From Bacteroidota bacterium (GTDB taxonomy: Bacteria > Bacteroidota > Bacteroidia > Bacteroidales > VadinHA17), in assembly GCA_043800695.1 (NCBI GenBank), contig JAZDMU010000053.1, positions 29,721 to 93,720 on the forward strand: a stretch of 64,000 nucleotides of DNA, read 5' to 3'. The notes beneath the pieces were generated by a model. It ran no database searches, had not been told where the DNA came from, and was given only the letters and a program-made list of their open reading frames with translations. Numbering within the stretch: the stretch's first letter is position 1; the number at the start of each line of letters is the position of its first letter. A program made the position numbers and the translations under genes. This document shows, one piece after another, positions 37,429 to 62,350 of the stretch.

Positions 37429-37450
37429 GGTTTCGATATTTCAGTTTAAA

Positions 37451-38239: not shown

Positions 38240-38257
38240 TTCCTAACCTCCTGAGAT

Positions 38258-39340: not shown

Positions 39341-39341
39341 G

Positions 39342-39566: not shown

Positions 39567-39583
39567 ATCAATACTTTTAAATT

Positions 39584-40903: not shown

Positions 40904-40965
40904 TGCACTAATTCAAAAATCGGTTTTTTATTAAGTGTATCTTTTACACTTAATAATCTGATACA

Positions 40966-43251: not shown

Positions 43252-43370
43252 CATGAACCCATCCCCCAACCCCCTTCCCTGCTTCGCAAGGAAGGGGGCT
43301 ATAAAGTTGTAAATCAACATGCTCCCCCTCCTTGCGAAGCAGGGAGGGGGACAAAGGGGGTGGGTACATG
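43252..43370. repeat. Inverted pair of ~47-nt GC-rich family-E-like units
   Basis: CATGAACCCATCCCCCAACCCCCTTCCCTGCTTCGCAAGGAAGGGGG (43252-43298) faces CCCCCTCCTTGCGAAGCAGGGAGGGGGACAAAGGGGGTGGGTACATG (43324-43370). Each unit also has an internal hairpin. Confidence 0.85.
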
Positions 43371-43381
43371 TTGCAAATAAA

Positions 43382-44515: not shown

Positions 44516-44550
44516 AACTCCTTGGTTAACTCCGTGCAACTCCGTGGTTA
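44457..44550. repeat. CAGRGCN heptamer array followed by AACTCCGTG repeats
   Basis: ggctcagggctcagggcgcagagcgcagagcacagggctcag ... ccgtgaaactccttggttaactccgtgcaactccgtgg. Confidence 0.85.
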
Positions 44551-44576
44551 GATTGATGATTACTAAACCTATAGAT

Positions 44577-47144: not shown

Positions 47145-47229
47145 TTGCTAGTTGCTAGTTGCTCGTTGCTCGTTGCTTGTTGCTTGTTATCTGGCTTTAA
47201 CCAGCAACCAGCAACCAGGAACCAGCAAC
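47145..47229. terminator. Family A heptamer hairpin: GTTGCTN x6 facing AACCAGC x4
   Basis: gttgctagttgctagttgctcgttgctcgttgcttgttgcttgtt-atctggcttt-aaccagcaaccagcaaccaggaaccagcaac fills the whole gap between convergent genes. Confidence 0.8.
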
Positions 47230-47231
47230 TT

Positions 47232-47756
47232 TCAAAATACCATCCTCCGGACGTGCACTTGCTTTAATGCTTTCAGGTCCCTTTCAAGATGTTCACGTTG
47301 TGCATGGTCACCTGTAAGCTCAAGGATGATCAGTCCGGCCGGCTGGCCGAAAAAGGTTTCATTGACTCCCAGCCGGGTGCGTATATAACAGCCGTAAGCT
47401 GTAAGCACTTTCTGGACTGCTGAAACAACATAAATATCTTTTTCAACAAGTATTCCCAGTATTTCAGCCGTATCATCAGCTATTCCGGCAATTGTTTTTT
47501 CATTCTCCGAAGAGAAGATCATCTGGCTGAAGACAACCCCGCCAAGAGGTTCAAGCTCGCTGATCAGCCTATCGGATTCCGACTCGTCATCTTTCAGGTG
47601 CAGAATGATATAAGCTTCGCGGCTGCAGACATTGTCTGTAACCTCATGAAATCCGAGACGCGTTGTGATAACTCCGGCGTGCCTCGATAAGATTCCCTGT
47701 GTAAGCCCGGCTTCCTTTATCCGGTCAACTATTTTAATCCCAAGTACTTTTATCAT
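47232..47756 (-). CDS. Tandem-duplicated TM1266-like (ACT/NikR-C-like) putative iron-only hydrogenase system regulator
   Basis: Start moved to MIKVLGIKIV. There are two ~85-aa halves, each with the TM1266-family pattern (ILGI.V......V..+L......I..RLG......G+I.LEL.G). It lies next to hydG. Confidence 0.6.
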   Translation of the reverse strand: MIKVLGIKIVDRIKEAGLTQGILSRHAGVITTRLGFHEVTDNVCSREAYIILHLKDDESESDRLISELEPLGGVVFSQMIFSSENEKTIAGIADDTAEILGILVEKDIYVVSAVQKVLTAYGCYIRTRLGVNETFFGQPAGLIILELTGDHAQREHLERDLKALKQVHVRRMVF

Positions 47757-47798
47757 TGGTTTGTTTATAGATATTTTTCTTAACCACGAAGTTTCACA

Positions 47799-47877
47799 GT
47801 CCCGAGTACTCGGGATCACGGAGTGACACGGTTTTTTCTTTTTTGAACCCTGTGCCCTGTGCCCTGCGCCCTGAGCC
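47799..47877. repeat. Family B 33-nt element with the perfect palindrome TCCCGAGTACTCGGGA, plus a CCCTGNG heptamer array
   Basis: gtcccgagtactcgggatcacggagtgacacgg (47799-47831), then ccctgtgccctgtgccctgcgccctgagcc (47847-47877) directly after the hydG stop. Confidence 0.85.
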
Positions 47878-47879
47878 TT

Positions 47880-49304
47880 TTAAAAATACAGATCCCTTTC
47901 ACCTTTTTTTATACGTTCAATCTTTTCCCTTGTATTCTGAGCAACTCCAGGTTCAAGGGTTGCCATGTTTTTCTCAATCACTTTCCAACCTTTTTCGGCC
48001 ACCTCTCCGGAAGCATAATCGCATATATATTCCGAAAGAGTGAGGATGGCGTTCGGAGTGCAGAACCTCTTTATGAATCCCGGCACCGAGAACTCCATGA
48101 AGTGTTCGCCTGTCCTTCCCATTCTATAGCATGAAGTGCAGAACGATGGCAGGTAATCGTTTGTAAGAAGCTCATCAATCACCTCCGCGAGCGACCGGGG
48201 GTCATTAATCCTGAACTGTTCACGGTTGAGATTCTGAGTCTCATTCTTTGACCCGGAATATGATCCCAGTTCAAGTTTTGTTCCTCCATCTATCTGTGAT
48301 ACACCATATTGCAGAACTTCCCTTCTGACGTCAGGATTCTCCCTGGCTGTCAGTATCATTCCGGTATAAGGCACCGCCAGCCTGAGAATGGCTACAAGTT
48401 TTTTGAAATCTTCATCACTGGTCTGGTACTGTCCGTTGATATTCAGACTGAGAGCGTCTTTTATCCTTGGAAATGAGATTGTATGGGGTCCTACGTTATA
48501 GCAGGCTTCGAGATGATTTGTATGGCGCACCAGTCCAAGCACTTCGAACCTCCAGTCGTAAAGACCAAACAGCGCCCCGATCCCGACATCATCAATACCT
48601 GCTTCCTGTGCCCTGTCAAGCGCGGTTAACCTCCATTCATAATCTTTTTTCTTTCCGCCCAGGTGATACCACTTGTAGGCGTCCGGATGATATGTTTCCT
48701 GGAAGATCTGATAGGTACCTATTCCTGCATCTCCCACTATCCTGAACCCGTCAATATCGAGTGGCGCTGCGTTAATGTTCACCCTGCGAATTTCACCATG
48801 TCCTTTTTTAATACCATACACAAGCTTAACTGTGTGAGCTATGTATTCGGGTGAATACTCCGGATGTTCACCATAAACCAGGATCAGGCGTTTCTGTCCG
48901 TTATCTTCAAGGGCCTCAACTTCATTAATGATCTCTTCATCAGAAAGGGTTTTTCTTACAGCATCTTTGTTTGAAACCCTGAATCCGCAATACTGGCAGT
49001 TGTTGGTACAACGGTTACCTATATATAAAGGTGCAAACAGTACGATCCTGTTGCCATACACTTTCTCCTTGAGCTCCCTGGCTCCCTGCCTTATCTCATC
49101 AGCAAGGTCGGTTCCTATCGAATTTACAAGGACAGCGGTCTCCTCCATGGTCAGCCTTTTCTTATCGAGCGACTTTGCAATTACATCTCTTACCCTTTGT
49201 TTATCGGGTTTTGTGTTATTGATAAGATCCCATATCTCGAAAGGATCAATGAATGGTTTCATCCGCTGGTCCGGGATACTTAATTTTTCAGGTGAGAACC
49301 TCAT
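47880..49304 (-). CDS. hydG: [FeFe]-hydrogenase H-cluster maturase HydG (radical SAM tyrosine lyase)
   Basis: CTNNCQYCGF (CX3CX2C) and the C-terminal CTSC-x22-C auxiliary cluster motif. 474 aa. Confidence 0.9.
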   Translation of the reverse strand: MRFSPEKLSIPDQRMKPFIDPFEIWDLINNTKPDKQRVRDVIAKSLDKKRLTMEETAVLVNSIGTDLADEIRQGARELKEKVYGNRIVLFAPLYIGNRCTNNCQYCGFRVSNKDAVRKTLSDEEIINEVEALEDNGQKRLILVYGEHPEYSPEYIAHTVKLVYGIKKGHGEIRRVNINAAPLDIDGFRIVGDAGIGTYQIFQETYHPDAYKWYHLGGKKKDYEWRLTALDRAQEAGIDDVGIGALFGLYDWRFEVLGLVRHTNHLEACYNVGPHTISFPRIKDALSLNINGQYQTSDEDFKKLVAILRLAVPYTGMILTARENPDVRREVLQYGVSQIDGGTKLELGSYSGSKNETQNLNREQFRINDPRSLAEVIDELLTNDYLPSFCTSCYRMGRTGEHFMEFSVPGFIKRFCTPNAILTLSEYICDYASGEVAEKGWKVIEKNMATLEPGVAQNTREKIERIKKGERDLYF

Positions 49305-49367: not shown

Positions 49368-50279
49368 TCAGTATATAAGTTCAATTATCTCAGCTCTTGC
49401 CGTACTCAGCTTCATGTGTGTTTTTTCATCAGTAAGGGAGACAGAGCCATGAATTTTCTTATGGAAAAGTATCTCAGTATTTTTGCCTGTAAAACATTCC
49501 CGGTTGTCAAAAATCTGAACCAGTACTTTCGGCTGTGCCTGGCCTTCGTCAGTAATCAATGCCATTCCCTTGGATATATTTAAATCAAGCACCACTGAAA
49601 CAGCATATATTCCCGGTGCAGGCAGCAGCTTGCATTCTTCCGTTACCGGTATGCAGCAGAATCCGGGGAGTAGTTCAGATGATCCGGTTTCAGGTTTTCC
49701 GATAATGAGATAATAGTGATCAAGATAAGCGTTTGCTCTCTGGATATATCCCTCCACTATGGCTTTTCGTATTTTTGTTGAGCTCACTGTTTCATGCTGC
49801 ACCTCCTGTTCGGGTATCTCCTCTGCCTCGAAGCCATATTTATTTCTCCAGCCCCAGAGCTGCCTGTAATCGCCCTCCTGGTTAAACCCGAAATGGTGAT
49901 TGAATCCGACAACCACAACACTTGCGTGCAGAACGTCGTGAAGTAAGTCTCTTACAAACTGCTCACTTGTGATCTTTGAAAATTCCCTGGTGAATGTGAC
50001 TATTATGAGGTTGTCAAGTCCGGCTTTTTGCAAGAGTTTCAGTTTTTCCTCCTGTGAATTGATGAGCTTCAGGCCCTTGCCAGCAGTATCGGGATAGAGC
50101 ACTTTCCGGGGATGGGGATCAAAGGTTATCAGTACCGATTCTCCCTCATGCTTCTGAGCCAGCATCCTGAGCCTGTTCAGGATTGTCTTGTGCCCTATAT
50201 GCACACCGTCGAATGAGCCTGTTGTGACGACAGGATTCCTTATTCCGCTGACCGCTTCAAAGCCTCTGAAGATCTTCAT
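49368..50279 (-). CDS. ribF: Bifunctional riboflavin kinase / FAD synthetase
   Basis: VVTTGSFDGVHIGHKTIL and the C-terminal riboflavin kinase domain. Confidence 0.9.
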   Translation of the reverse strand: MKIFRGFEAVSGIRNPVVTTGSFDGVHIGHKTILNRLRMLAQKHEGESVLITFDPHPRKVLYPDTAGKGLKLINSQEEKLKLLQKAGLDNLIIVTFTREFSKITSEQFVRDLLHDVLHASVVVVGFNHHFGFNQEGDYRQLWGWRNKYGFEAEEIPEQEVQHETVSSTKIRKAIVEGYIQRANAYLDHYYLIIGKPETGSSELLPGFCCIPVTEECKLLPAPGIYAVSVVLDLNISKGMALITDEGQAQPKVLVQIFDNRECFTGKNTEILFHKKIHGSVSLTDEKTHMKLSTARAEIIELIY

Positions 50280-50294
50280 TATGAAACAGTCTTG

Positions 50295-50918
50295 CTAGAG
50301 TGTATTTTCCTTGACGAAGTATGCAACTTTTTCAATCGAGGTTATCATGTCGTACTCTTCAAGATATACCCATGATGGCACGTTTAATGGTATTGTGGTA
50401 AAATTCAGTATGCCTTTTACCCCGTATTTTACCGCCTCTTCAGCGATATCCCTGGCAAAATCAGCAGGTACAGTGATTATGGCGATCCGGATATCAAGCT
50501 CCCTGATCACCCTCTCCATCTCTGTGTGCGGATAGCATTTAACACCCGAAATCACTTTGTTCACCTTCTGGAGATCGGTATCAAATGATGCCACAAGGTT
50601 GAGTTTTGATCTTTTGCCCTTGAAATATCCGGCTACTGCCCTGCCAAGGTTCCCGATGCCAATAATTGCCACATTCAGTGTTTCGGGTGAATCGATCACG
50701 GTGCCTATTTTATCAATAAGCTCCCTGACATCATAACCTTTCCGCTGGACAGAAGCATATCCTATCAGCATCAGGTCGCGTCTTACCTGGACAGCTGTGA
50801 TATGAAGGCGGGCTGCCAGATCATGTGAAAAGATGAAGTTCTTTTTCTCGTTGAGACACTCCAGAAGGGTCCTTCTGTATTCACTGAGTCTTTCGATGGT
50901 TTTTCCCGGTAGTTTCAT
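50295..50918 (-). CDS. rex: Redox-sensing transcriptional repressor Rex
   Basis: TIERLSEYRRTL.., winged-helix VQVRRDLMLIGY, Rossmann IIGIGNLGRAVAGY, ILNFT. Confidence 0.9.
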   Translation of the reverse strand: MKLPGKTIERLSEYRRTLLECLNEKKNFIFSHDLAARLHITAVQVRRDLMLIGYASVQRKGYDVRELIDKIGTVIDSPETLNVAIIGIGNLGRAVAGYFKGKRSKLNLVASFDTDLQKVNKVISGVKCYPHTEMERVIRELDIRIAIITVPADFARDIAEEAVKYGVKGILNFTTIPLNVPSWVYLEEYDMITSIEKVAYFVKENTL

Positions 50919-50938: not shown

Positions 50939-52060
50939 TTATTTCCTTGGAAGCTTAACTGTAAATACCGTTCCGACTTCAGGCGTGCTTTCCACGCTGA
51001 TCTCACCATGGTACAATTCTATCACCTTCCTCACTATAGACAGGCCAAGCCCGCTTCCCGATATGTTTTTCGTGCGGTCGTTCCTGACCCTCATGAACTC
51101 CCTGAAGAGGTTTTCCCGGTCCTCTTCGGATATTCCGATGCCCGTGTCAGCAAACCTGAGGGTTATTTCATTGTCGGTGCTCTCGATCAGAATATCAACC
51201 TTGCCTCCGAACCTGTTGTACTTCACTGCATTCGAGATGAGATTATTGAAGATAATATCCATGTCCTCAGGATCAGCCATGATATTTGAATCGTTCCTGA
51301 CGTTGAGGTTTATTGTCACCTCCATCTGTATAGCATAAGGCTGTACCGTTACTACAGCACCTTTTGCAACTTCGGCCAGGTCTGTTTCCTGGATCTTGTC
51401 CTCTTTCTTTTCAAGACGTATCTTGGTAAAATCGAGCAGGTCCATAATCAGGTTTCTCATGCTCTGAATTCTCTGCAGCGACCTGTCGATATGATTTGCA
51501 TAATCATCGATCTTATCCCCTGCCTGTTTCTCCTGCATTATCCTCAGGTATCCCTCGAGTGCATTGAGAGGGGCTTTAAGTTCATGCGAAAGGACCGAGA
51601 GGAACTGGTACCTGACCTTCTTCCCTTCCTGGTTCAGCCGGTTTGTCACCTTTTTCAGGTAAAGCTGCTTCGAGATATTTTCAATGCTCGATTTCAGCTC
51701 CTGGGGCGTAAATGGCTTTGGAATGAAGTCGGTGGCTCCATCGCGGGTAGCCCTGATCGCTACGTCAAGCGATGCATAGGATGTTATCATTGCAATGGCA
51801 ATGTCGTACTTCTTCTCGCGGATCTTCTCAAGCACGTCCACTCCCTGCATTCCCGGCAGCTTATTATCCAGAAGGAGGATGTCAGGCTTTTCCCTGCCGA
51901 TCATTTCGATCCCTTCCTCGCCTGATGCTGCCGATAATACCTCAAATGTAAAGTCCTCATCCATAAACGGATAGGTTACATGGAAATTACCCAGTATCCT
52001 GGCTACCCCTGACCTGATACCCGGTTCATCATCAATGACAAGTACCCTTAAGACTGCCAT
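50939..52060 (-). CDS. Hybrid response-regulator receiver / histidine kinase (REC-HisKA-HATPase_c)
   Basis: REC with VLVIDDEP..LLLDNKLPG, H-box LSHELKAPLNAL, and N/G boxes (NLISNAVKY, DTGIGI, GSGLGLSI). No DNA-binding domain. Confidence 0.85.
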   Translation of the reverse strand: MAVLRVLVIDDEPGIRSGVARILGNFHVTYPFMDEDFTFEVLSAASGEEGIEMIGREKPDILLLDNKLPGMQGVDVLEKIREKKYDIAIAMITSYASLDVAIRATRDGATDFIPKPFTPQELKSSIENISKQLYLKKVTNRLNQEGKKVRYQFLSVLSHELKAPLNALEGYLRIMQEKQAGDKIDDYANHIDRSLQRIQSMRNLIMDLLDFTKIRLEKKEDKIQETDLAEVAKGAVVTVQPYAIQMEVTINLNVRNDSNIMADPEDMDIIFNNLISNAVKYNRFGGKVDILIESTDNEITLRFADTGIGISEEDRENLFREFMRVRNDRTKNISGSGLGLSIVRKVIELYHGEISVESTPEVGTVFTVKLPRK

Positions 52061-52081: not shown

Positions 52082-52456
52082 TTATTTCCTGGTCGAGCTG
52101 TTCAGCCCTGATTCCTTTTCAAGATACCTGTCGGCCCTTATCCATGATTTCTCCTTGTCGGAATCAAGGCTGAAGGATATCCCTGTTTCGCGTGCCACCG
52201 CAGTTGCAAGTATCACAGGAACATCGGGATAGAGCCGCTTTATCCTGTAACAAAGAATGAATCCGCTGTCATCGCTTTCCATCATCAGATCGAATATTGC
52301 CAGGTCGGGCCTGAATTTAGATATGATCAATTCCGCCTCTGCCTGGCTCTCTGCTTTTAACGTCTTATATCCTGCCTTCTCCAGAGTGAAAATAGTCTGG
52401 AAAAGATAATCCGGATCATCATCCGCAACCAGTATCGTAAAATCGCTCTTCTTCAT
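52082..52456 (-). CDS. Single-domain response regulator (REC only)
   Basis: 124 aa, ILVADDDPD..LAIFDLMM..ILATA. Confidence 0.85.
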   Translation of the reverse strand: MKKSDFTILVADDDPDYLFQTIFTLEKAGYKTLKAESQAEAELIISKFRPDLAIFDLMMESDDSGFILCYRIKRLYPDVPVILATAVARETGISFSLDSDKEKSWIRADRYLEKESGLNSSTRK

Positions 52457-52468
52457 TCTTTCCTGGGT

Positions 52469-52505
52469 CTTTTATCTTTTGTCTTTTATCTTCATTCTTT
52501 TCTCC
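52469..52505. repeat. TTTTNTC heptamer array
   Basis: ttttatc ttttgtc ttttatc ttcattc ttttctc spans the 3' end of the sensor-kinase gene and the gap before the REC gene. Confidence 0.7.
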
Positions 52506-54453
52506 TCGGTAATACTATTTTAAAGCTTGTACCTGTCGGCCCTTTAGCGGGATCTGTGTTGGACTCAACCGTTATCCGTCCCTTATGCATCTTCACTATG
52601 CCATATGCCGTTGCGAGACCAAGTCCCGTTCCAAATCCAACTCCTTTTGTCGTAAAGAAAGGCTCAAATACTTTTACCTTATCTTCTTCTTTAATTCCTG
52701 TTCCTGAATCAGTTATCGATATGCTTACATCGCTAAGGGTATCTTCAAGGAGTATCCCGATCTCTCCCCCTGACGGCATTGCTTCAAATGCGTTTTTGAT
52801 CAGGTTTGTAAGCACCTGTGTCATCTGCTCTGCGTCGAGCATTGCTTCCGGATTCTCAGTGCTGTTTGTTGTTTTGATCTTAACATCAGTCGGTACAATA
52901 AGGCTCTCAAGACTCTGGCTGACGAGCTCGCTGATACTGACAAGCTGATGGTTGACCTGATTTTTTCGTGCAAAATTAAGAAGTCCGGCAACGATCTTCT
53001 TGCAACGGCCTGCCTGTTCAACGATAAGTTTCAGATCTTCCCGTACTGGATCGCCCTCCCTGCTTTCATCAAGAAGGATATTGCTGTACATTATAACCAC
53101 GCCAAGCGGATTATTAAGCTCATGTGCAATACCTGCCGACAGCTGGCCCATATGAGCAAGCTTCTCGGATTGCTTCAGCGCCTGTTTTACCTCCCTCAGT
53201 TTTTCATTGGAAAGTGCCAGATCGTTGACTGATTTATGAAGTTTTTCAATGGTGTATGGCAGGCACATCTCCACTTCGGCAAGTCCTTTCTTTATTGCAA
53301 CCGCATGCTCAACGCATGTCTCATATCCGCAGGCGCCGCAATCGAGCTGGTCTTTCCTGGATATCTTGCCCATTGAGATAAGTATCTCTTCCACATCTTT
53401 TTCGTCCATCAGTAAGGCTCTGTGATCCTCAGGTTTATGACGAATGGAGAGATCTATATCCAAATGCTTGTTCACAGCCATCTGCCAGACATTATGATCT
53501 TCATTTTCCATTTTACCGCTTGCATAGCTGCTGACCAGGGCCCTTCTGTTATATTGTTTCCCGTTCCTCGACAGACCGGGCCCCATTATGCATCCTTCAC
53601 AGCAGAGAAGCTCCATGTGCTGCTTCTTAATGAGCCCTGCTTCAAACTCCTTAAGCGCCTCCTGAAAATCTATCCTTCCCTCAGCAGCAATAATATTGCC
53701 CGTTATTGCATCATCATTAATGTTTGCAGTCTGAAGCAGTCCCCTGGTAACCGGGAAGATAGCTCCCCTGCCACCCAGCGGCGGATCAAATTCCGAGGGC
53801 TGGCTGTTGACCGGGTAAATGCTTTTTGCTGCGAAGAGCTCCCTCAGCTCAGTAAAGGTGATAACCTCATCAATTTCCGGGCTTTCGGCTTTTTTCGCCA
53901 CACATGGGCCGATAAATACAACCTTCAGGTCATTTCCATATTTTGCATGCATCACCATGCTCATTGCAACCATCGGGGAGACGATAGGTGCAAGACAGTC
54001 AGTAAGGCCGGGGTGATAGTATTTTACAAAATTCACAATTGCAGGGCAATCAGATGAAATGTAATATTCATCGCTTTCACTCAGCAGCTTCTTGTATTTT
54101 GCCGCAACCAGATCTGCTCCGAATGAGACTTCAGATACATACTTAAAGCCAATTGCCCTGATCATGCCTACCAGGGCCTGGTGATCGGGTATATCATAGA
54201 ATTCAGCAGGAAAGCTTGGGGCAACCATTGCAGCCACTTCAGAAGAATCTTCAATGAGCTTCAGCACCCTGTCGGTCGTGTTGAGGAATACCTTTGCTCC
54301 CTGGCTGCAAACTTTGGTGCAGTTCCCGCAGCCGATACACCTCTCATCTATTACCTCAGCCTGGCCTCCCACAATCCGGATCGCCTTGGCCGGACATTCA
54401 CGTACGCAGGTGTAGCAGGTACGGCAGAGTTCTTTTATGGTGTAGACTAACAT
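52492..54453 (-). CDS. Sensory [FeFe]-hydrogenase-like protein fused to a histidine kinase (group C1-like HydS-HK)
   Basis: Two N-terminal 4Fe-4S motifs (CRTCYTCVRECP, CIGCGNCTKVCS). H-domain with SSDCPAIV / GPCVAKKAE / ELLCCEGCIMGPG. CGACGYETC..C Fe-S linker. HisKA (AGIAHELNNPL) and HATPase_c (DSGTGI, GTGLGL). Confidence 0.8.
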   Translation of the reverse strand: MLVYTIKELCRTCYTCVRECPAKAIRIVGGQAEVIDERCIGCGNCTKVCSQGAKVFLNTTDRVLKLIEDSSEVAAMVAPSFPAEFYDIPDHQALVGMIRAIGFKYVSEVSFGADLVAAKYKKLLSESDEYYISSDCPAIVNFVKYYHPGLTDCLAPIVSPMVAMSMVMHAKYGNDLKVVFIGPCVAKKAESPEIDEVITFTELRELFAAKSIYPVNSQPSEFDPPLGGRGAIFPVTRGLLQTANINDDAITGNIIAAEGRIDFQEALKEFEAGLIKKQHMELLCCEGCIMGPGLSRNGKQYNRRALVSSYASGKMENEDHNVWQMAVNKHLDIDLSIRHKPEDHRALLMDEKDVEEILISMGKISRKDQLDCGACGYETCVEHAVAIKKGLAEVEMCLPYTIEKLHKSVNDLALSNEKLREVKQALKQSEKLAHMGQLSAGIAHELNNPLGVVIMYSNILLDESREGDPVREDLKLIVEQAGRCKKIVAGLLNFARKNQVNHQLVSISELVSQSLESLIVPTDVKIKTTNSTENPEAMLDAEQMTQVLTNLIKNAFEAMPSGGEIGILLEDTLSDVSISITDSGTGIKEEDKVKVFEPFFTTKGVGFGTGLGLATAYGIVKMHKGRITVESNTDPAKGPTGTSFKIVLPRRKE

Positions 54454-54578: not shown

Positions 54579-56300
54579 TTATAGCAAGACGTCTCTCTTC
54601 TCAAAATGCGTATAAAATATCTTCTTATCAGATATCTCCCTGTTCTCCTTCAGAAGCTTTTCGTACATTTTAATAATGACTGGTGATTTTTCAGGGATGC
54701 TAACAGCATCTGTTTCGTCGGCCTGCAGGATGATTTTTGCACGGTTCTTCCTTTCTTCCTTTGTCTCCTTCAATGCCAGTCCGGCCCCGTTGACGCAACC
54801 GCCGGGACAGGTCATCACCTCAACAAGATCATATTTCTTGCCGGCGGACCGGGCTGACTTAAGCTTTTCAAGTCCTGTAAGTCCATCGACCACAGCAACG
54901 CTGATCTCAAGCGTTCCTGTATTGAAAAAAGCTTCCCTGAAGTTCCCCGAGCCGCGCAGTTTTTTGAACATCTGTTTTTCAGCTTCATTTCCGGTGAGTC
55001 TGAACCATGCTGACCTGATGACTCCTTCGGCCATTCCTCCGGATATTTCAGCCATAGCTGCAACGGAGCTTCTTCCCTCCATCGGCTCATCGGCAGGCTC
55101 CTGACCTGCATTGGTTATGTCAATTCCATATAACCGTATTAGCCGTGCGAGCTCCCTGATGGTGAGCACCGAATCGACATCGCTGATCCCTTTGCGCATC
55201 ATTCCGTCGCGGCGGGCTTCAAACTTCATAGCAATACAGGGTGTGACTGAGACGGAAAATATCTTTTCGGCTTTCGCTGATGACTGTGAGGCAACAAGTG
55301 TTTTGATCAGAGCCCCGGTAATCTGCTGCGGTGATTTTACTGTTGAAAGGTCAGACAGCAGCGACGGCATGAACTGCTCCGCGTATTTTACCCATGCAGG
55401 GCAAGCACTTATGAACAAAGGCTTTTCCGATTTGGATCTGATCCTGCCCAGAAGCTGGTCAGTAATTTCCGAAATGCAGATATCAGTACCGGTACCAGTG
55501 TTAAATACCTTATCGAAGCCCATTTTGCGAAGGATCGAATTGAGCACCCTGTCAAAATCCCTGCTGTATCTGACACCCATCTCCTCTGCGATGCCTGCCG
55601 GCACCAGGGGTGAATACTGGATAACCTTCAGTATATCAGGTTTGTTCAGGTACTCCTGCACCTCCGTGATATTATGCTTCTCATGAAGCGCAGCTGTAGG
55701 GCAAACTAGCACACATTGTCCGCAGTTTATGCAGCTGGAGAAGTTGAAATCGCGGTCCATAGCCGGGCCAACATGAGTCAGCCTGCCCTTGTTAATAAAA
55801 TCAAGAGAGGTCGGAGTGATCAGTTCTTCGCATATCCTCACACATCTTCCGCACAGGATGCATTTTGAGAGCTCCCTGACAATTGCCGGACTTGACTGAT
55901 CGAGACGCGGCTTGATCTTTCTGGAGCGAATCCTCCGCTCCCTTATGTTAAGCTCTTCAGAGAGCCGCTGAAGCTCACAATCCAGGTTGCGGTCGCAGTA
56001 AAGGCAATCGTCAGGATGGTTCGAGAGAAGCAGTTCAACAATTGTTTTTCTTGCAGTTATAACCCTTGGTGAATGGGTCTTTATCTTCATCCATTCCTCA
56101 ACAGGTTGAGAACAGGCAGTAACGAGCCGGTCACGCCCCTCGACCTCCACAACACACATCCTGCAGGCACCCGTTGGAGTAAAATCCTTCATCCTGCAAA
56201 GAGTGGGAATGATGATACCATTGCGGTTAAGAGCCGAGAGTATAGTTTCTCCCTTTTCAGCCCTGAGCTTCTTGTTATTTACCTCTATTGTAAAAACCAT
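54579..56300 (-). CDS. hydA: [FeFe]-hydrogenase large subunit HydA-like (M3 architecture) with non-canonical H-cluster motifs
   Basis: N-terminal 2Fe-2S (CRMKDF..GACRMC), NuoG-like His/Cys cluster, CILCGRCVRIC and CINCGQCVLVCP. H-domain motifs are ISACPAW, TPCIAMKFE and EVMTCPGGCVNGAG. Gene order is hydC-hydB-hydA. Confidence 0.8.
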   Translation of the reverse strand: MVFTIEVNNKKLRAEKGETILSALNRNGIIIPTLCRMKDFTPTGACRMCVVEVEGRDRLVTACSQPVEEWMKIKTHSPRVITARKTIVELLLSNHPDDCLYCDRNLDCELQRLSEELNIRERRIRSRKIKPRLDQSSPAIVRELSKCILCGRCVRICEELITPTSLDFINKGRLTHVGPAMDRDFNFSSCINCGQCVLVCPTAALHEKHNITEVQEYLNKPDILKVIQYSPLVPAGIAEEMGVRYSRDFDRVLNSILRKMGFDKVFNTGTGTDICISEITDQLLGRIRSKSEKPLFISACPAWVKYAEQFMPSLLSDLSTVKSPQQITGALIKTLVASQSSAKAEKIFSVSVTPCIAMKFEARRDGMMRKGISDVDSVLTIRELARLIRLYGIDITNAGQEPADEPMEGRSSVAAMAEISGGMAEGVIRSAWFRLTGNEAEKQMFKKLRGSGNFREAFFNTGTLEISVAVVDGLTGLEKLKSARSAGKKYDLVEVMTCPGGCVNGAGLALKETKEERKNRAKIILQADETDAVSIPEKSPVIIKMYEKLLKENREISDKKIFYTHFEKRDVLL

Positions 56301-56305
56301 AATGG

Positions 56306-58240
56306 TTATTTTACTGTTATAGCGCTGAACTTGCAGATATCATAGCATATCCCGCAGCCAATGCACTTATCCTCTACAATAAAGAATGGCTGAAGCCTGG
56401 TTCCGTAGATTGCATTCACAGGGCATTTTGATGCGCAGGCTGTGCACCCTGTGCATTTTTCCACATCGATTGAAAATGTCCTGAGTCCCCTGCAGATATT
56501 GGCTCTGCATTTTCTGTCGAAAATATGCTCCTCGAATTCCTCTCTGTAATTCCTGAGTGCACTGAGGAACGGGTTGGGAGCATTCTGCCCGAGACCGCAC
56601 AATGAAGTATCCTTCATTACCGATGCGATGTTCTCGAGCTGCATTACCCCCTTGAAGCGTTCGAGGGTGGTGCCTGATTCCTCATTATCAGGCTTTCTTA
56701 TTATGCTCTCAAGTATCTCGAGCATTCGACCTGTTCCTTCACGGCACGGTATGCATTTACCGCAGCTTTCATTACGCATGAACTCCATATAATGCCTTAT
56801 CAGGTCAACCATGCACGTGTTCTCATCAATGATAACAAAGCCTCCTGCACCCATCCCGATTCCCTTCTCCTTCAATGCATCAAAATCGATCTTCATATCG
56901 AGGTTCTCAGATGTGATGAAGGAGCCGGTAACGCCTCCAAGCTGAACAGCCTTGAGCTCTTTTCCATCTTTTATGCCGTCGGCAATATCCTCGAGGATGG
57001 TTCTGACTGAAGTCCCCATTTCCACTTCAATCACACCCGACATTCTTCCCCTGCCTGCCACTGCAAAAACTTTAGTGCCCGGACTATTTTCTGTTCCGGT
57101 TCTCCTGAACCATTCGGGCCCGTTCTGCATGATCAGCGGCACATTCATCAGTGTCTCAACGTTATTGATCACTGTCGGCTTGTTGAACAATCCCGCCGTG
57201 GATGGGTAGGGAGGCTTGAGCTTTGGCATTCCCCTCTTGCCTTCAAGAGTGCTTATAAGAGCTGTCTCCTCACCGCATACAAAAGCCCCTGATTCTTTCC
57301 GTACGGTAATATCAAGTCCGTAGCCGCTTGAAAATATGTTGTGTCCAAGGAGTCCATACTCTCTTGTTCTCTCGATTGCTGTCCGGATTCTCTGCAGGGC
57401 GTGCTCCGATCCTTTCCTGAAGAATATTATTGCATTCGAGGAGCCGATAGCATAGGAAGCGATGGCTATTCCCTCAATAAGCCGGTAAGGGTCGCTTTCC
57501 AGCAGAGTCCTGTCGGTAAATGCACCAGGGTCGCTCTCCTTTGCATTGCATATCAAGTATTTTATTGAGGATCCGGTATTGAGCGCCTGTTTCCACTTAA
57601 GTCCAGTTGGATATCCGCCGCCCGATCTGCCCCTGAGGCCGCTTCTTTCAATAATATCGCATACCTCCTCAAAAGTGTAGTGCCTGATAGTTTTGGAAAA
57701 AATCCTGAATCCTCCGCGGGCTATATATTCTTCAATGCTTTCCGGATCGTAGCATCCGCAGTTGTTCATCACGATCCTCTTCTGACGGGAAAAAAACGGC
57801 AATTCCTCCAGGAAAGGTATTCCGGGCCACATTTCAAATCCGTGTGTTCCGTGCTGACCTGCCAGGTCATCTTCATTTATATCGTTGTGAAAGACACCAT
57901 TAAGGAGAGATTCAACTTTTTCTTCCGTTATATTCCTGAAGAACAGTTTGTTTTTGCCGGGAAGCTGAATGCATACAAAGGGTTCAAAGTTAGCTGGTCC
58001 CTGGCACCCAACCTTTACCAGTCCGGCATTAAGTTCATTGTCTGTGATATACTCCCGGAGAGCCGCCCATGTCCTTTCCGACCCTGAAATAATGCTTCTG
58101 GTACCTGACGAAACATAGATGATGGGCACTGTTGTCTTTTCCCTTCTGACTTCCTGCAGAACCCTCTCAGTTTCCGATGATACGACATCAGATTCAAGCA
58201 ACAGCACACTCTCAACCAGGTATTTCTTCAGATCTTCCAT
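56306..58240 (-). CDS. hydB: HydB, NuoF-like flavoprotein subunit of the trimeric hydrogenase
   Basis: FMN/NADH block GLRGRSGGGYPTGLKW..ICNAKESDPGAF, N3 cluster SCGKCIPCREG..C, and a C-terminal 2x[4Fe-4S] (CTGCTACASKCP, CIGCGICYDIC). Confidence 0.85.
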   Translation of the reverse strand: MEDLKKYLVESVLLLESDVVSSETERVLQEVRREKTTVPIIYVSSGTRSIISGSERTWAALREYITDNELNAGLVKVGCQGPANFEPFVCIQLPGKNKLFFRNITEEKVESLLNGVFHNDINEDDLAGQHGTHGFEMWPGIPFLEELPFFSRQKRIVMNNCGCYDPESIEEYIARGGFRIFSKTIRHYTFEEVCDIIERSGLRGRSGGGYPTGLKWKQALNTGSSIKYLICNAKESDPGAFTDRTLLESDPYRLIEGIAIASYAIGSSNAIIFFRKGSEHALQRIRTAIERTREYGLLGHNIFSSGYGLDITVRKESGAFVCGEETALISTLEGKRGMPKLKPPYPSTAGLFNKPTVINNVETLMNVPLIMQNGPEWFRRTGTENSPGTKVFAVAGRGRMSGVIEVEMGTSVRTILEDIADGIKDGKELKAVQLGGVTGSFITSENLDMKIDFDALKEKGIGMGAGGFVIIDENTCMVDLIRHYMEFMRNESCGKCIPCREGTGRMLEILESIIRKPDNEESGTTLERFKGVMQLENIASVMKDTSLCGLGQNAPNPFLSALRNYREEFEEHIFDRKCRANICRGLRTFSIDVEKCTGCTACASKCPVNAIYGTRLQPFFIVEDKCIGCGICYDICKFSAITVK

Positions 58241-58729
58241 TTAATCATTTTCAACAATGAACCTGAGCTTTTTGATAAATTCAGGCAGATGGTCAGGCCT
58301 GATATGAGTATGATACTCGTCATTTACACGGATCACTGGTCCTCTATTGCAGCCGCCCATGCATGTCTCAATCTCATAGCTGAAAATCCCGTCCCTGCCT
58401 GTCTGCCCCGGAGCAAGTCCGGTTATCTCTCCTATCTTCGTTATCACTGCCTGTGAACCGTTAATGTAGCATGATGTCCCGTTACAAATCCTTATATGCA
58501 CTTTGCCTGCGGGGATAAACCTGAACTGGTCGTAAAATGTTGCCAGTCCGTAGATCTTGGTAGTGCTGAGACCAATAAAAGTACCTGCCTTAACAATAGT
58601 CTCCTCGGATAAAAAGCCTTCAGCATCCTGAATATCCTGAAGGAGCGGAATAAGGTCCTCCCTTCGTCCTGGTTTATACTTTTTGAATATTGCATCGCTA
58701 TTCTGACCCATCAGAATGATAATTAACAA
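58241..58729 (-). CDS. hydC: HydC, NuoE-like thioredoxin-fold [2Fe-2S] subunit
   Basis: ICNGTSC..CMGGC motif, 162 aa. The true start is probably MGQNSD. Confidence 0.85.
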   Translation of the reverse strand: MLIIILMGQNSDAIFKKYKPGRREDLIPLLQDIQDAEGFLSEETIVKAGTFIGLSTTKIYGLATFYDQFRFIPAGKVHIRICNGTSCYINGSQAVITKIGEITGLAPGQTGRDGIFSYEIETCMGGCNRGPVIRVNDEYHTHIRPDHLPEFIKKLRFIVEND

Positions 58730-58767: not shown

Positions 58768-58785
58768 TTGTTAATTAATTAACAA
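58768..58785. promoter_or_regulatory. Candidate Rex operator (perfect 18-bp palindrome)
   Basis: TTGTTAATTAATTAACAA fits the TTGTTAAnnnnTTAACAA / TTGTGAAnnnnTTCACAA Rex-box class. It lies 39-56 nt upstream of the hydC start in the hydCBA / 2Fe-2S-hydS divergent region. A degenerate half-site, TTGTGAAAAAATAAACAT, abuts it at 58751-58768. Confidence 0.65.
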
Positions 58786-58997: not shown

Positions 58998-59255
58998 GTG
59001 ATGACCAGGGAAGCGGAGATGCATATATGTTTGGGAAGTTCCTGTTTTTCAAGAGGGAACAAGGAGGTGGTGGCGTTCATAAAAGATTACCTTAAAAAGA
59101 ATCATCTTGAAGACAAGGTCATCTTTAAGGGAGCCCGGTGCATGGGAAACTGCAGTAAAGGTCCCAATCTCAGGATCGGCGACAGGATCGAGGAGGGTTT
59201 AACAGTTTCAGGTTTAGAGGCGATCCTTGACAGGGAACTGGCAAAACTGAAATAA
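58998..59255 (+). CDS. Small thioredoxin-like [2Fe-2S] protein (HfsA-like)
   Basis: 85 aa, ICLGSSC...ARCMGNC (CX4C..CX3C). Immediately precedes the PAS-type sensory hydrogenase. Confidence 0.7.
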   Translation: MMTREAEMHICLGSSCFSRGNKEVVAFIKDYLKKNHLEDKVIFKGARCMGNCSKGPNLRIGDRIEEGLTVSGLEAILDRELAKLK

Positions 59256-59275: not shown

Positions 59276-61165
59276 ATGACCGCAATAAAACCTGTTTTGT
59301 ACATAAACGACGACAGATGCAGGAATTCATATTCCTGTGTAAGGGTTTGCCCTGTAAATGCCATTGAGGTCAAACCGCAGAAGCTTCATCCCACGATCAT
59401 ATCTCAGAGATGCATAGGATGCGGGCTCTGTTATGTCTCCTGCTCGCCCGGGGCGATTGAATTCCGCGATTCAAATGAGGATGTTAAGGCGCTGCTGTCG
59501 TCGGGCAGGAAAAAGGCGGCCCTGATAGAACCAAGCATTGCATCGGAATTTGATGATATCACTGACTACAGGAAGTTTGTTGCCATGATCCGGTCGCTGG
59601 GATTTGACTATGTTCATGAGGTCTCTTTCGGTGTGGATCTTATTGCAGCCAAATATGCTGACCTCTTCAGCACTTCCGAAGGCAAATATTACATAACGGC
59701 AAATTGTCCGTCAATAGTAAAGATCATCGAGAAATTCCATCCCGAGCTGACGCCAAACCTTGCACCTCTGGTATCGCCCATGATAGCTACCGCAATGGTA
59801 GTGAGGGAACTGTACGGACCGGATTGCGCCACCATCCAGATCGGGCCCTGCATAGACGCCAAGGACGAAGCCCTGCTATACAGCTCAGGAAAGCTGATAG
59901 AGGGGGTTCTCACATTCACCGAACTACGCCAGCTTTTCGATGAGTCCGGTATTCAGGAGAGGCTCGTAAAGATATCGGATTTTGATGCGCCACACGGCTA
60001 CTGGGGCGCCCTCTACCCTCTTCCGGCAGGGATAATACAGGCCGGAGGGATCAAACGTGATATGGTCTCCAGTAAGGTCATCACGGCATCGGGTAAGGAG
60101 GATATTCTTGAGGCTATAAATGATTACGATAAATATATTGATACTATACATCATCATTTCAACTTGTTTTTCTGCCATGGCTGCCTGCTCGGGCCGGGCA
60201 TGGAACATCACAATGAAAGATTCCGCCGAAGAGCCCTGGTGAGCCGCTATACTGAAAAAAGGATCTCCGTTCTCGATAAAGAGGCATGGAATAAAAACAT
60301 GGACAAATGGCTGAAGCTTGATTTCTTGCGGACCTTCACCCCTGATGATCAGAGGATCCCGGAACCTCCTGTTGAAGCTGTGAACGAAGTGCTCAAGATC
60401 ATAGGAAAACAGGACTCCAGCGAGGAGCTCGACTGCGGGGCATGCGGATATATGTCGTGCCGCGATTTTGCATCAACGGTTGCAAAGGGACTGGCAGTCC
60501 CGGAGATGTGCCACACGTTCAATCTGCGCAACAAGCAGGAATATATTGAAACCCTGAGACAGACAAACAGAAAGCTCGCTGAGACAAAAAAAGCCCTCAA
60601 GGAATCAGAAGAGCTTGCACTCCGTGAAAAAGAGGTGGCACAAAGCGCATCCGATATGATGAACAGCATGCTCGAAAAGCTGCCAATAGGAGTCGTAATT
60701 GTCGATAAAAGCCTGAAGATACTTCACTCCAACCTTAGCTTTATAAACACGATAGGCGAAGATGCGAAAGCGATTGCAGACGTAATACCCGGTCTGGCAG
60801 GGGCAGATATCAAGACCCTGATTCCCTTCAATATCTATAACATGTTCTCTTTTGTGTTAAAGGAAGACGAACCCGTTGTTAGCAAGGATGTTCACTGGGA
60901 CGACAGGATGCTCAATATTTCGATATTCCCCATCAAGAAAAACAAAATGTGCGGTGCTGTGATCCGTGACTTGTATTCACCTGAAGTACAGGCAGAAGAG
61001 GTCACTAACAGGGTAAGTGAAGTAATAGAGAAGAATCTCGAGATGGTTCAGAAGATCGGGTTCCTGCTCGGCGAAGGGGCATCAGAAACAGAACAGATGC
61101 TTAACTCGATCATAGAGTCATACAGGAAAAGAAGCAGCAGCAAAAACAGCGGAAACAAATCATAA
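59276..61165 (+). CDS. Sensory [FeFe]-hydrogenase-like protein with C-terminal PAS domain (group C3-like HydS/HfsB-like)
   Basis: 4Fe-4S motifs (CRNSYSCVRVCP, CIGCGLCYVSCS). H-domain with TANCPSIV / GPCIDAKDE / NLFFCHGCLLGPG. CGACGYMSC..C linker, coiled coil, and PAS-like LEKLPIGVVIVDKSLKILHSN. Confidence 0.8.
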   Translation: MTAIKPVLYINDDRCRNSYSCVRVCPVNAIEVKPQKLHPTIISQRCIGCGLCYVSCSPGAIEFRDSNEDVKALLSSGRKKAALIEPSIASEFDDITDYRKFVAMIRSLGFDYVHEVSFGVDLIAAKYADLFSTSEGKYYITANCPSIVKIIEKFHPELTPNLAPLVSPMIATAMVVRELYGPDCATIQIGPCIDAKDEALLYSSGKLIEGVLTFTELRQLFDESGIQERLVKISDFDAPHGYWGALYPLPAGIIQAGGIKRDMVSSKVITASGKEDILEAINDYDKYIDTIHHHFNLFFCHGCLLGPGMEHHNERFRRRALVSRYTEKRISVLDKEAWNKNMDKWLKLDFLRTFTPDDQRIPEPPVEAVNEVLKIIGKQDSSEELDCGACGYMSCRDFASTVAKGLAVPEMCHTFNLRNKQEYIETLRQTNRKLAETKKALKESEELALREKEVAQSASDMMNSMLEKLPIGVVIVDKSLKILHSNLSFINTIGEDAKAIADVIPGLAGADIKTLIPFNIYNMFSFVLKEDEPVVSKDVHWDDRMLNISIFPIKKNKMCGAVIRDLYSPEVQAEEVTNRVSEVIEKNLEMVQKIGFLLGEGASETEQMLNSIIESYRKRSSSKNSGNKS

Positions 61166-62350
61166 TTGAACAGGGATTTCTACATAGAAGTAAACAGCCA
61201 GCAGCGCAATCATGACGGAGAAAAGATCTGCGGCGATGTTTTTCTTTACAGGTCGATAAAGGAAGAAGACAGGGTGATAGCAGTGCTCTCCGACGGCATG
61301 GGGCATGGTGTAAAAGCAAACATTCTGGCCACACTCACATCGACAATGGCTCTTAATTTTACCCGCGAACACAAAGAGGTCGATCGTATCGCTGAAATAA
61401 TAATGAATACCCTCCCTGTCTGCAGCGAAAGGAAAATAAGTTACTCAACTTTTACCATTGTCGATATTGAGAGCAGCGGCAAAGCCACAATACTTGAATA
61501 CGACAATCCCCAGGCAATAGTGTTGAGAGGCAATCAGCTGTTTGACCCGGGATGGAAGAAGGTGGTCCTTGAAAAGGGAAAGCATGCGGGTAAAGTCCTG
61601 AAAACATGCACATTCATGCCCGAAAAGGAAGACAGGATAGTATTCTGCTCCGACGGAGTGGCACAGAGTGGCATGGGCAGCGAGCCATTTCCATTCGGCT
61701 GGGAGAGGGATAATGTTGCAGGGTATGCTTCAACACTTGTAACCAGCGAGGGTTCCATCTCAGCTTCAATGCTGGCAGGCAAGATCGTGACAATGGCGCA
61801 CAAGAACGACTCCTACAGGGCAAAAGACGATATCAGCTGTGCAGTTATTTACTTCCGCGAGCCACGCAAGCTGCTGCTATGTACCGGTCCGCCCTTTGAA
61901 AAGGAAAAGGACAGGGATCTGGCATTAAAGGTGAAGGATTACAAGGGCAAGGTTATCCTGTGCGGAGGAACGACTGCCGACATAATTGCCAGGGAACTTG
62001 ACAGGAAGATCGTTGATGAGCTTATTTTTGAGGACCCTGACCTCCCTCCCGAGAGCTTCCTGGAGGGAATTGACCTGGTTACAGAAGGGATACTGACACT
62101 GCAGAAAGTAAATGAAATACTCAAGAGCTATAACAACAGCGTGAAGCTTGGAAAAGGTCCTGCCGACAAGATAGTGAAGCTGCTGATGGAAAGCGATGAG
62201 ATACATTTCATTATTGGCACACGGATCAACATAGCTCACCAGGATCCGAATCTCCCGGTTGAACTGGAGATAAGGAGAACTGTCGTCAAACGCATCGCCC
62301 GGCTTCTTGAGGAGAAGTGGCTGAAGAATGTAACGTTTGAATATATATAA
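61166..62350 (+). CDS. PP2C/SpoIIE-family serine phosphatase with a C-terminal uncharacterised domain (HfsC-like)
   Basis: ICGDVF..IAVLSDGMGHGVKANILA..FCSDGV motifs. TTG start directly after the hydS stop. The ~160-aa C-terminal region (GKVILCGGTTADIIAREL...) is unassigned. Confidence 0.8.
   Translation: MNRDFYIEVNSQQRNHDGEKICGDVFLYRSIKEEDRVIAVLSDGMGHGVKANILATLTSTMALNFTREHKEVDRIAEIIMNTLPVCSERKISYSTFTIVDIESSGKATILEYDNPQAIVLRGNQLFDPGWKKVVLEKGKHAGKVLKTCTFMPEKEDRIVFCSDGVAQSGMGSEPFPFGWERDNVAGYASTLVTSEGSISASMLAGKIVTMAHKNDSYRAKDDISCAVIYFREPRKLLLCTGPPFEKEKDRDLALKVKDYKGKVILCGGTTADIIARELDRKIVDELIFEDPDLPPESFLEGIDLVTEGILTLQKVNEILKSYNNSVKLGKGPADKIVKLLMESDEIHFIIGTRINIAHQDPNLPVELEIRRTVVKRIARLLEEKWLKNVTFEYI

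Follow-up and report, generated by a model that had tools for sequence, protein, structure and literature searches.

Remodelled H-cluster pocket in the HydA subunit of a Bacteroidales HydABC-type [FeFe] hydrogenase

The window analysed here is the whole of a stretch of 64,000 nucleotides (nt) from a Bacteroidota bacterium (GenBank assembly GCA_043800695.1, contig JAZDMU010000053.1, positions 29,721 to 93,720); coordinates below are those of the window. It carries the gene hydA, whose product HydA has the build of the large subunit of a bifurcating-type HydABC hydrogenase. Judged from its residues, the canonical proton pathway of this HydA is inoperable, and the anchor of the distal cyanide (CN) ligand is missing.

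54579..56300, minus strand: hydA, encoding a 573-residue M3-type [FeFe]-hydrogenase large subunit with a remodelled H-cluster pocket (open reading frame (ORF), Pfam and PDB entry 8a6t_A)

Pfam analysis of HydA revealed matches to Fer2_4, NADH-G_4Fe-4S_3, 2x[4Fe-4S] and Fe_hyd_lg_C, in addition to a weak match to Fe_hyd_SSU. The M3 architecture is present, with an N-terminal [2Fe-2S] domain, a NuoG-type [4Fe-4S] domain, a 2x[4Fe-4S] domain, the H-domain and a small-subunit-like C-terminus. A phmmer search showed that the best match in the PDB is HydA of T. kivui (8a6t_A, E=8e-125), aligned over the full length, and the other top solved relatives are A. woodii HydA1, T. maritima HydA and CpI. 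In the AlphaFold2 model, the H-domain has predicted local distance difference test (pLDDT) values of 85-95, and the best fold match is again 8a6t_A. The domain order and the full-length alignment bear out the complete bifurcating-type architecture that an earlier note, made from the sequence alone (hereafter the original prediction), had described. The protein does not reach the curated NCBIfam cut-offs for group A hydrogenases (575 versus 765 bits for FeFe_hydrog_A6, and 343 versus 406 bits for TIGR02512). According to Pfam, it has no PF04060, PAS, HisKA or other output domain and no C-terminal four-cysteine module, whereas both sensory hydrogenases (HydS) in the window have them. The gene hydA lies beside genes for a NuoF-like HydB and a NuoE-like HydC, an arrangement kept in at least 75 of the 80 related loci (74-96% identity) that were collected by searching one genome per species. 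Matches of 2.4 kb at some of these loci do not reflect an intein or insertion in hydA, as the H-domain of the downstream HydS had been merged into the same match.

The active-site residues were assigned from phmmer alignments to HydA of T. kivui, A. woodii and T. maritima and to CpI, which are gapless across the motifs, and a 151-sequence MAFFT alignment gave the same result. Residues are given in CpI numbering, with which the window numbering coincides by chance at positions 230-425, whereas in the L3 motif it equals the CpI number minus one (M496, C498 and C502). The spacer from GFDKVF to the L1 motif is 27 residues long in both the window HydA and T. kivui HydA, so there is no misplaced indel, the one error by which the original prediction thought it might have misread the motifs, and its residue calls stand. 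The segments that shape the pocket are as follows.

55593..55613, minus strand: SPLVPAG, on the proximal-CN side of the pocket, with Ala230 replaced by Ser, Pro231 kept, Ser232 replaced by Leu and Arg234 replaced by Pro
55449..55472, minus strand: SEITDQLL helix, with Glu278 kept, Glu279 replaced by Ile and Glu282 replaced by Gln, followed by Arg286
55392..55412, minus strand: L1 motif ISACPAW (residues 297-303), with Ala at the proton-relay position 299 and the ligand Cys300 kept
55218..55244, minus strand: L2 motif TPCIAMKFE (residues 353-361), with Thr353, Cys355, Met358, Lys359 and Glu361
55023..55052, minus strand: AEISGGMAEG loop, with Phe417 replaced by Ala, Gly418 replaced by Glu (candidate substitute proton relay) and Val423 replaced by Met
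54780..54821, minus strand: L3 motif EVMTCPGGCVNGAG, with the equivalents of Met497, Cys499 and Cys503 kept

All four cluster cysteines (C300, C355, C499 and C503) are kept, and L3 follows the pattern ExMxCxxGCxxG. By contrast, L1 departs from TSCCPxW by the loss of the proton-relay Cys299, and L2 departs from MPCxxKxxE by the loss of Met353 and Lys358, retaining only Cys355, Lys359 and Glu361. The canonical proton route, Cys299-Glu279-Ser319-Glu282-Arg286 with an entrance at His565/His569, is broken at positions 299, 279, 282, 565 and 569; Ser319 and Arg286 are still present, and the entrance carries the changes H565K and H569Y. Glu279 is the relay residue directly behind Cys299. Further pocket changes are I268T and A272T, and hydroxyl residues now occupy four first-shell positions (Ser230, Thr268, Thr272 and Thr353). 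The [2Fe] pocket is partly kept (Pro231, Pro324, Gln325 and Met497), and the unchanged residues comprise P231, E278, R286, S319, P324, Q325, K359, E361, G421, G422, E425 and M497.

These alignments agree with the original prediction on Ala299 in L1, on Met358 and Thr353 in L2 with its exact coordinates, on Gln at position 282, and on a near-canonical L3 with all four cysteines. Its coordinates for L1, 55398-55412, span only ISACP and not the full motif, and its statement that all three signature motifs deviate goes too far, as only L1 and L2 deviate meaningfully. The changes beyond its list are E279I, a key relay loss, F417A/G418E, S232L, R234P, A230S, I268T, A272T, V423M, H565K and H569Y, and the partner HydB is non-canonical as well.

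The same residue set is found throughout a large clade. The motifs IS[A/V/I/S]CPAW and [T/S]PCxAMK[F/Y]E, and likewise E418, occur in all 120 of the best homologous protein clusters (77-96% identity), drawn from NCBI, JGI, ENA and Logan. Met358 and Glu418 are present in 80/80 loci, none of which (0/80) contains an internal stop. In the clade alignment of 130 sequences used for residue frequencies and entropy, position 299 is occupied by Ala (111), Val (13) or Ile (4), while M358 is found in 129, T353 in 119 and E418 in 129 members. Invariant or nearly so are M358, E418, Q325, M497, T268, T272, S319 and the four cluster cysteines; position 423 is Met, Leu or Ile. The first-shell pocket has an entropy of 0.40, compared to 0.72 for random H-domain positions (P about 0.05). 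The residue changes thus appear, at the level of sequence, to be fixed and selected across the clade, far beyond chance.

The 80 loci come from metagenome-assembled genomes (MAGs) that represent uncultured Bacteroidales/Bacteroidota from fens, lake sediments, soils and digesters. In a 50%-identity library the variant lineage forms the single cluster P0121 (74%), and the next matches are at most 49% identical. Only generic annotation was found as functional names among the protein clusters and loci examined. No characterised member of the clade was found, all members being from MAGs or metagenomes, and so the clade with this motif set did not turn out to be an already characterised, active one, an outcome that the original prediction had also considered. 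Literature searches found no paper that describes the A299/T353/M358/E418 set in a HydABC subunit, and nothing relevant on natural variation of K358 or C299 in HydABC. The group A3 HydA of B. thetaiotaomicron (588 residues; low-activity according to Welsh et al. 2025) was set aside as evidence, since its membership of the clade was not established. As a side observation, the MAG fen_982 has two contigs (loci L014 and L032), each with a variant cluster, whose HydA proteins are 78% and 77% identical to that of the window; either the cluster was duplicated into paralogs or the bin mixes strains.

The hydA gene is part of a cluster of 12 genes, which are in the same order in most of the 80 loci and form two divergent arms. 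One arm consists of PP2C, HydS-PAS and a small [2Fe-2S] protein, and the other of HydC, HydB, HydA, HydS-histidine kinase (HydS-HK), receiver, receiver-kinase, Rex, RibF, (TM1266-like) and HydG. Two H2-sensor modules flank the hydABC operon in 80/80 loci. The features around hydA in the window are as follows, with scores and cut-offs where available.

43319..44515, plus strand: HydE, H-cluster maturase (343 bits, cut-off 255)
47232..47819, minus strand: TM1266-like putative iron-hydrogenase system regulator
47880..49304, minus strand: HydG, H-cluster maturase (486 bits, cut-off 312)
49368..50279, minus strand: RibF-like riboflavin kinase/FAD synthetase
50295..50918, minus strand: Rex, redox-sensing repressor (194 bits, cut-off 126)
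50939..52060, minus strand: receiver-histidine kinase hybrid
52082..52456, minus strand: stand-alone receiver domain protein
52492..54453, minus strand: hydS-HK, group C1-type sensory [FeFe] hydrogenase fused to a histidine kinase, with Asp299 and Lys358
56306..58240, minus strand: hydB, 644-residue NuoF-like FMN/NADH subunit with C-terminal 2x[4Fe-4S] (Pfam, NCBIfam)
58241..58729, minus strand: hydC, 162-residue NuoE-like thioredoxin-type [2Fe-2S] subunit (Pfam, NCBIfam)
58768..58785, no strand: candidate Rex-type operator TTGTTAATTAATTAACAA, a perfect 18-bp palindrome about 40 nt upstream of hydC
58998..59255, plus strand: small thioredoxin-like [2Fe-2S] protein, divergent from hydC (Pfam)
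59276..61165, plus strand: hydS-PAS, group C3-type sensory [FeFe] hydrogenase, with Asn299, Gly353 and Ala358
61166..62350, plus strand: PP2C/SpoIIE-type phosphatase, partner of hydS-PAS (Pfam)

The palindrome TTGTTAATTAATTAACAA is the sole match in the 64-kb window, compared to 0.02 expected, and in 65/82 loci the stretch 37-67 nt upstream of hydC holds a copy with no more than one mismatch, compared to about 1% of random windows. We take it to fit the Rex operator consensus. The Firmicute-type Rex box TTGTGAA-N6-TTCACAA gave only chance-level matches, and TTGTTAA-N4-TTAACAA is the significant form. Upstream of the hydrogenase cluster, at 36886-43026, are genes for a VOR-type 2-oxoacid:ferredoxin oxidoreductase (three subunits), an aminotransferase and an ADP-forming acyl-CoA synthetase, followed at 43319-49304 by HydE, the TM1266-like gene and HydG; no HydF was found in the 64-kb window. 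Altogether, as far as gene content tells, the setting seems to fit a redox enzyme still relevant to the H2/NADH balance, with HydG, HydE and the TM1266-like gene adjacent, a candidate Rex operator and two H2 sensors.

The two sensors differ from HydA and from each other in their active sites. HydS-HK keeps Lys358, Ser232 and Phe417, has an invariant Asp299 and carries Gly353; its motifs ISSDCPAI, GPCxAKKxE and LELLCCEGC do not vary between lineages that share only about 33% identity in the H-domain of HydA. HydS-PAS has Asn299, Gly353 and Ala, Asn or Ser at position 358, followed by a conserved Lys359, and would be a putative sensor that likewise lacks the distal-CN lysine. The pattern PCxxxKxE, without Lys358 and with Lys359 kept, is common to HydS-PAS and the variant HydA. 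The H-domains of HydA and of the HydS proteins in the window share about 25% identity, and no solved structure of a sensory HydS was found in the PDB.

The partner HydB retains the NuoF [4Fe-4S] (B1) motif, the C-terminal 2x[4Fe-4S] domain and the H..C..C ligands of the B2/Zn site. Its flavin mononucleotide (FMN) loop reads NAKESDPG rather than NADEGDPG in 76/80 loci, whereas the relatives L084, L086 and L087 keep the Asp, a residue that presumably helps to hold FMN in Nqo1 of complex I. In the N-terminal thioredoxin-like [2Fe-2S] domain, two of the three conserved cysteines are replaced throughout the clade (GTRS.., GCQGPA..). According to Schut et al. (2022, PMC9304861), every bifurcating Bfu enzyme retains this N-terminal [2Fe-2S] cluster (B5) of BfuB. 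Among PDB entries, BfuB of A. mobile (7t2r_B) matches the window HydB best.

A profile of divergent relatives recovered a large Bacteroidales/Tenuifilaceae clade of 574-residue proteins (P0309-P0426), named '[FeFe] hydrogenase, group A' at NCBI, the N-terminal domain of which is 65-71% identical to that of the window HydA. Most members keep Cys299 (or Asp), Met353, Lys358 and Phe/Tyr417, and several sublineages have Asp299. Most of the Cys299-bearing members have Gln, Met, Val, Leu or Thr in place of Glu279. Since this sister clade has mostly lost Glu279 while Cys299 is still there, the textbook proton pathway seems to have been abandoned stepwise. The identical 12-gene synteny occurs at L086 (Tenuifilaceae; C299/M353/K358/F417), L087, L088 and L089, of which L089 has fully canonical residues, L087 has Leu299/Ser353/Arg358 and L088 has Ser299/Ser353/Ala358/Glu423. 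The more distant P0125 and P0128 lineages share the gene order too. In this shared 12-gene cluster, the window hydA occupies the place of a canonical-type HydA, of which it is the positional ortholog. In the A. woodii-type HydA (7q4v_A), L1 reads TSCSPGW, with Ser at the ligand position Cys300 and Cys299 kept, which is common among otherwise canonical A3 enzymes. The protein P0122 is predicted to be 4122 residues long with seven tandem H-domains (MPCTVKKTE in all seven), either a giant multi-hydrogenase or an assembly artefact.

A comparison across independent lineages, using 50%-identity cluster representatives of M3-type HydA, set the proteins that lack Cys/Asp299 (n=41) against those that have it (n=70), as listed below.

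Lys358 kept: 9/41 without Cys/Asp299, 66/70 with it
Met353 kept: 0/41 without (Thr/Ser in 29), 62/70 with
Phe/Tyr417 kept: 9/41 without, 63/70 with
Glu279 kept: 7/41 without, 63/70 with
All four cluster cysteines kept: 39/41 without, 62/70 with
Acidic residue at position 418 or 423: 14/41 without, 1/70 with (Fisher p=2e-6)

The loss of Cys299, the replacements linked to it and the gain of an acid at 418 or 423 resemble the pattern of the sensory group C/D enzymes.

The variant HydA is probably a slow, altered or cofactor-poor enzyme, as far as its residues indicate. We propose that HydA may still bind the H-cluster, in a pocket remodelled to be sensor-like, while protons would take a non-canonical route and catalysis would be attenuated or differently biased, a tentative reading to which we give a probability of roughly 45%. 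The protein would be the HydA (BfuA) of a Bacteroidales HydABC, its cluster being under the control of Rex and two HydS sensors, and in this lineage the surroundings of the H-cluster would have been reshaped to resemble those in sensory groups C and D. The [2Fe] subcluster would still be delivered to HydA by HydE/HydG, the diatomic ligands might be held through the new hydroxyl network, and protons could be exchanged via Glu418 in place of Cys299. HydA would thereby remain the H2-reactive end of an NADH/ferredoxin-linked complex, with a turnover much lower than that of the prototypical A3 enzymes, a bias unlike theirs, or both. The proposal draws on the non-random replacements, the conserved pocket, the precedent of TamHydS, the Lys358-less C3 sensor at the same locus and an association with maturases, Rex and H2 sensors that is nowhere broken.

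Several observations weigh against this proposal. Besides the residues discussed above, Arg234 is lost. The sister lineages without Cys299 carry bulky Phe, Leu, Trp, Tyr or His at this position, which would be hard to fit beside the azadithiolate (adt) bridge. The placing of residue 418 near the adt amine depends on our assumption that Phe417 lines the H-cluster pocket. The H-domain of HydA is moreover the fastest-evolving part of the operon and is less constrained than the neighbouring sensor: measured against the orthologous operons, the HydA H-domain reaches 32-34% identity, the HydA N-terminal domain 50-61% and the HydS-HK H-domain 55-60%, and among clade members the H-domain is three times as variable as the N-terminal FeS domain (entropy 0.72 against 0.23). 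This fast evolution says less about the window clade than it might, because part of it is common to the whole family and a Bacteroidales subclade with canonical residues shows it too (H minus N = -14 points). The idea that the H-domain outpaces the N-terminal domain only in Cys299-less proteins is weakened by the same sign in that subclade. What the window clade has of its own is no more than a moderate additional acceleration, amounting to about 9 identity points at matched N-domain identity, with an H/N divergence ratio of 2.8 versus 1.7. Finally, Met358 together with Ala299 could mean that there is no [2Fe] cofactor at all, because replacement of the distal-CN-contacting residue by Asn in group A enzymes yields inactive protein without infrared (IR) or electron paramagnetic resonance (EPR) signals of [2Fe]H, as summarized in a review, and C299A variants have strongly reduced turnover according to the same kind of source and an original paper.

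It is quite possible, although we do not prefer it, that HydA is a pseudo-hydrogenase whose H-domain keeps only the [4Fe-4S]H cubane, so that the complex would be an NADH/ferredoxin electron-transfer module and the H2 chemistry would reside in HydS. The original prediction named three functional options, namely a slow or biased enzyme, an alternative proton path and a third sensor, and loss of the [2Fe] subcluster adds a fourth. The joint loss of Lys358, Cys299, Met353, Phe417, Ser232 and Arg234 alongside four retained cysteines speaks for it, and the effect of Asn at the equivalent distal-CN residue points the same way. The low H-domain identity of HydA relative to that of HydS-HK, the divergence of the H-domain from canonical relatives by about 9 points more than in other subclades, the sister lineages with Phe, Leu or Trp299 that lose Met497, Pro324 or Glu361, the missing N-terminal [2Fe-2S] ligands of HydB and the scores below the NCBIfam cut-offs are also in keeping with it, and a BfuA without H-cluster in NiFe-HydABCSL provides a precedent. 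However, the replacements are non-random, with Thr/Ser favoured at 353 and acids enriched at 418/423; the pocket positions are conserved above the H-domain average, Pro231, Pro324, Gln325 and Met497 being kept; an invariant buried Glu418 is not expected in a cofactor-less domain; and in every lineage the operon stays linked with H2 sensors, maturases and Rex.

Rather unlikely is a fully competent electron-confurcating hydrogenase that uses another proton pathway and another way of anchoring the cofactor and makes fermentative H2 at normal rates. The HydABC architecture is complete, including the C-terminal ferredoxin domain of HydB and the cluster of HydC, and regulation by a Rex operator and H2 sensors is typical of catabolic hydrogenases. 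The family also seems to manage without the textbook pathway, as the C299/K358 sister clade has mostly lost Glu279, and genes for a ferredoxin-reducing 2-oxoacid oxidoreductase and an acyl-CoA synthetase lie nearby. Yet all characterised Ala299 enzymes are slow, both the engineered C299A/C169A variants and the natural TmHydS and TamHydS, and about 90% of the C299-bearing representatives have Met353, Phe417 and Lys358 unchanged. HydB speaks against normal function as well, with Lys in place of the conserved FMN-loop Asp and the ligands of a Bfu-conserved cluster lost (PMC9304861).

In a further scheme, which we hold to be unlikely on present sequence grounds, the H2-reactive site would sit in HydS-HK and HydA would be sensor-like or cofactor-less throughout an environmentally abundant Bacteroidales lineage, HydABC and HydS forming one complex that weighs H2 against NADH/ferredoxin or turns over H2 via HydS. 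The gap between hydA and hydS-HK is 125 nt in the window, the two genes overlap by 4 nt at L082 (6353-6356), and they directly abut at L088 (11725-11726). Such overlap or abutment in some orthologous operons suggests translational coupling and possibly a physical association of HydABC with HydS.

It is improbable that HydA is a dedicated third H2 sensor built on a HydABC scaffold. It does have a sensor-like second sphere (A299, a hydrophobic residue at 279, Thr353 and no Lys358), its gene sits among signalling genes, and the association of Ala299 with sensory enzymes, stated in the original prediction, is borne out by papers that give A131 for TmHydS and A137 for TamHydS. However, the absence of any PAS, kinase or other output domain and of the C-terminal four-cysteine module, together with its position as ortholog of a canonical-type catalytic subunit, makes this the least supported of the functional options; two complete sensors are already present at the locus, and the HydA H-domain is less conserved than those of the two HydS. 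A sequencing or assembly artefact or a decaying pseudogene can be dismissed, given an intact full-length ORF, 74-96% identity in 80 stop-free loci, at least 120 protein clusters and the conserved gene order.

HydABC complexes with HydS regulators, and H-cluster pockets of the sensory type, are already known. What is new is that a catalytic subunit from a complex of bifurcating type carries a sensory-type or degenerate pocket, that this state is fixed throughout a widespread lineage, and that it belongs to a graded natural series. At JGI these proteins are labelled 'iron-only hydrogenase group A' and 'HndD', and metagenomic surveys class them as group A/A3 H2 producers. Should these proteins prove slow or lack the cofactor, the capacity for H2 production credited to uncultured Bacteroidales of fens, lake sediments, soils and digesters would be set too high. 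One orthologous operon family offers a natural series from the canonical state (ECMKFGVM) through Glu279-less and C299D forms to at least three independent sensor-like sets. This series may serve as a test bed for how the second sphere and the proton pathway control rate, bias and cofactor retention in [FeFe] hydrogenases, and it is relevant to a possible origin of sensory hydrogenases from catalytic ones. Glu418, and the recurring acid at 418/423, is a concrete and testable candidate for an alternative proton relay.

Among known systems, the closest gene arrangement is that of the 'sub-type V' BfuTABC clusters with two bfuT (HydS) genes in Perlabentimonas, Tenuifilum and Williamwhitmania (Zheng & Huang 2024, PMC11406978). 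As in the window, one HydS gene lies upstream of hydC and the other downstream of hydA; we compared these cultured species by the description in that paper, where the clusters are regarded as bifurcating hydrogenases and no account is given of the A299/T353/M358/E418 set.

Compared to the group A3 HydABC complexes of T. kivui (8A6T), A. woodii (7Q4V) and T. maritima (7P5H), the window system has the same M3 order in HydA, adjacent HydB and HydC, the four H-cluster cysteines, L3, Pro231, Pro324, Gln325 and Met497. It differs in HydA by C299A, E279I, E282Q, M353T, K358M, F417A, G418E, S232L, H565K and H569Y, and in HydB by the lack of the N-terminal [2Fe-2S] ligands and by the NAKESDPG loop.

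Similar to the sensory enzymes TamHydS (group D) and TmHydS (group C), the window HydA has Ala299, a hydrophobic residue at 279 and Ser/Thr353, and the canonical proton pathway is gone. TmHydS has A131 at the 299 position, and TamHydS has A137, F119, S191 and L291 at positions 299, 279, 353 and 497; the latter binds the H-cluster and relays protons via E252. This residue corresponds to CpI position 423, because the mutagenesis primers encode SGG-E-AFG. In TamHydS the relay Glu is thus at 423 and accompanied by Leu497, whereas the window HydA has Met423, a Glu at 418 and a kept Met497. A group D-type relay was accordingly rejected for the window HydA, position 423 being Met/Leu, although the P0123 group among the sister lineages does have Glu423. 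Moreover, the two sensory enzymes are M2-type proteins with a C-terminal four-cysteine cluster, with or without PAS and without HydBC partners, unlike the window HydA. By sequence identity and in neighbour-joining (NJ) trees, the window HydA groups with the Bacteroidales A3-type HydA and not with groups C/D.

Nar1/NARFL proteins have a hydrogenase-like fold and keep the cluster cysteines, and they are not known to have a [2Fe] subcluster or the proton-relay cysteine. These eukaryotic factors serve in cytosolic Fe-S assembly, and neither HydBC partners nor a maturase context is known for them.

In NiFe-HydABCSL of Acetomicrobium mobile, the HydA homolog (BfuA) has no H-cluster, the cofactor site of the H-domain being absent, and its electrons go to NiFe subunits that are separate proteins (Schut et al. 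2022, PMC9304861). The window system resembles it in the BfuABC core and in HydB, which matches A. mobile BfuB, and BfuA there is not the H2 catalyst. It differs in that the window operon has no extra catalytic subunits and that its HydA carries a full H-domain with all four cysteines.

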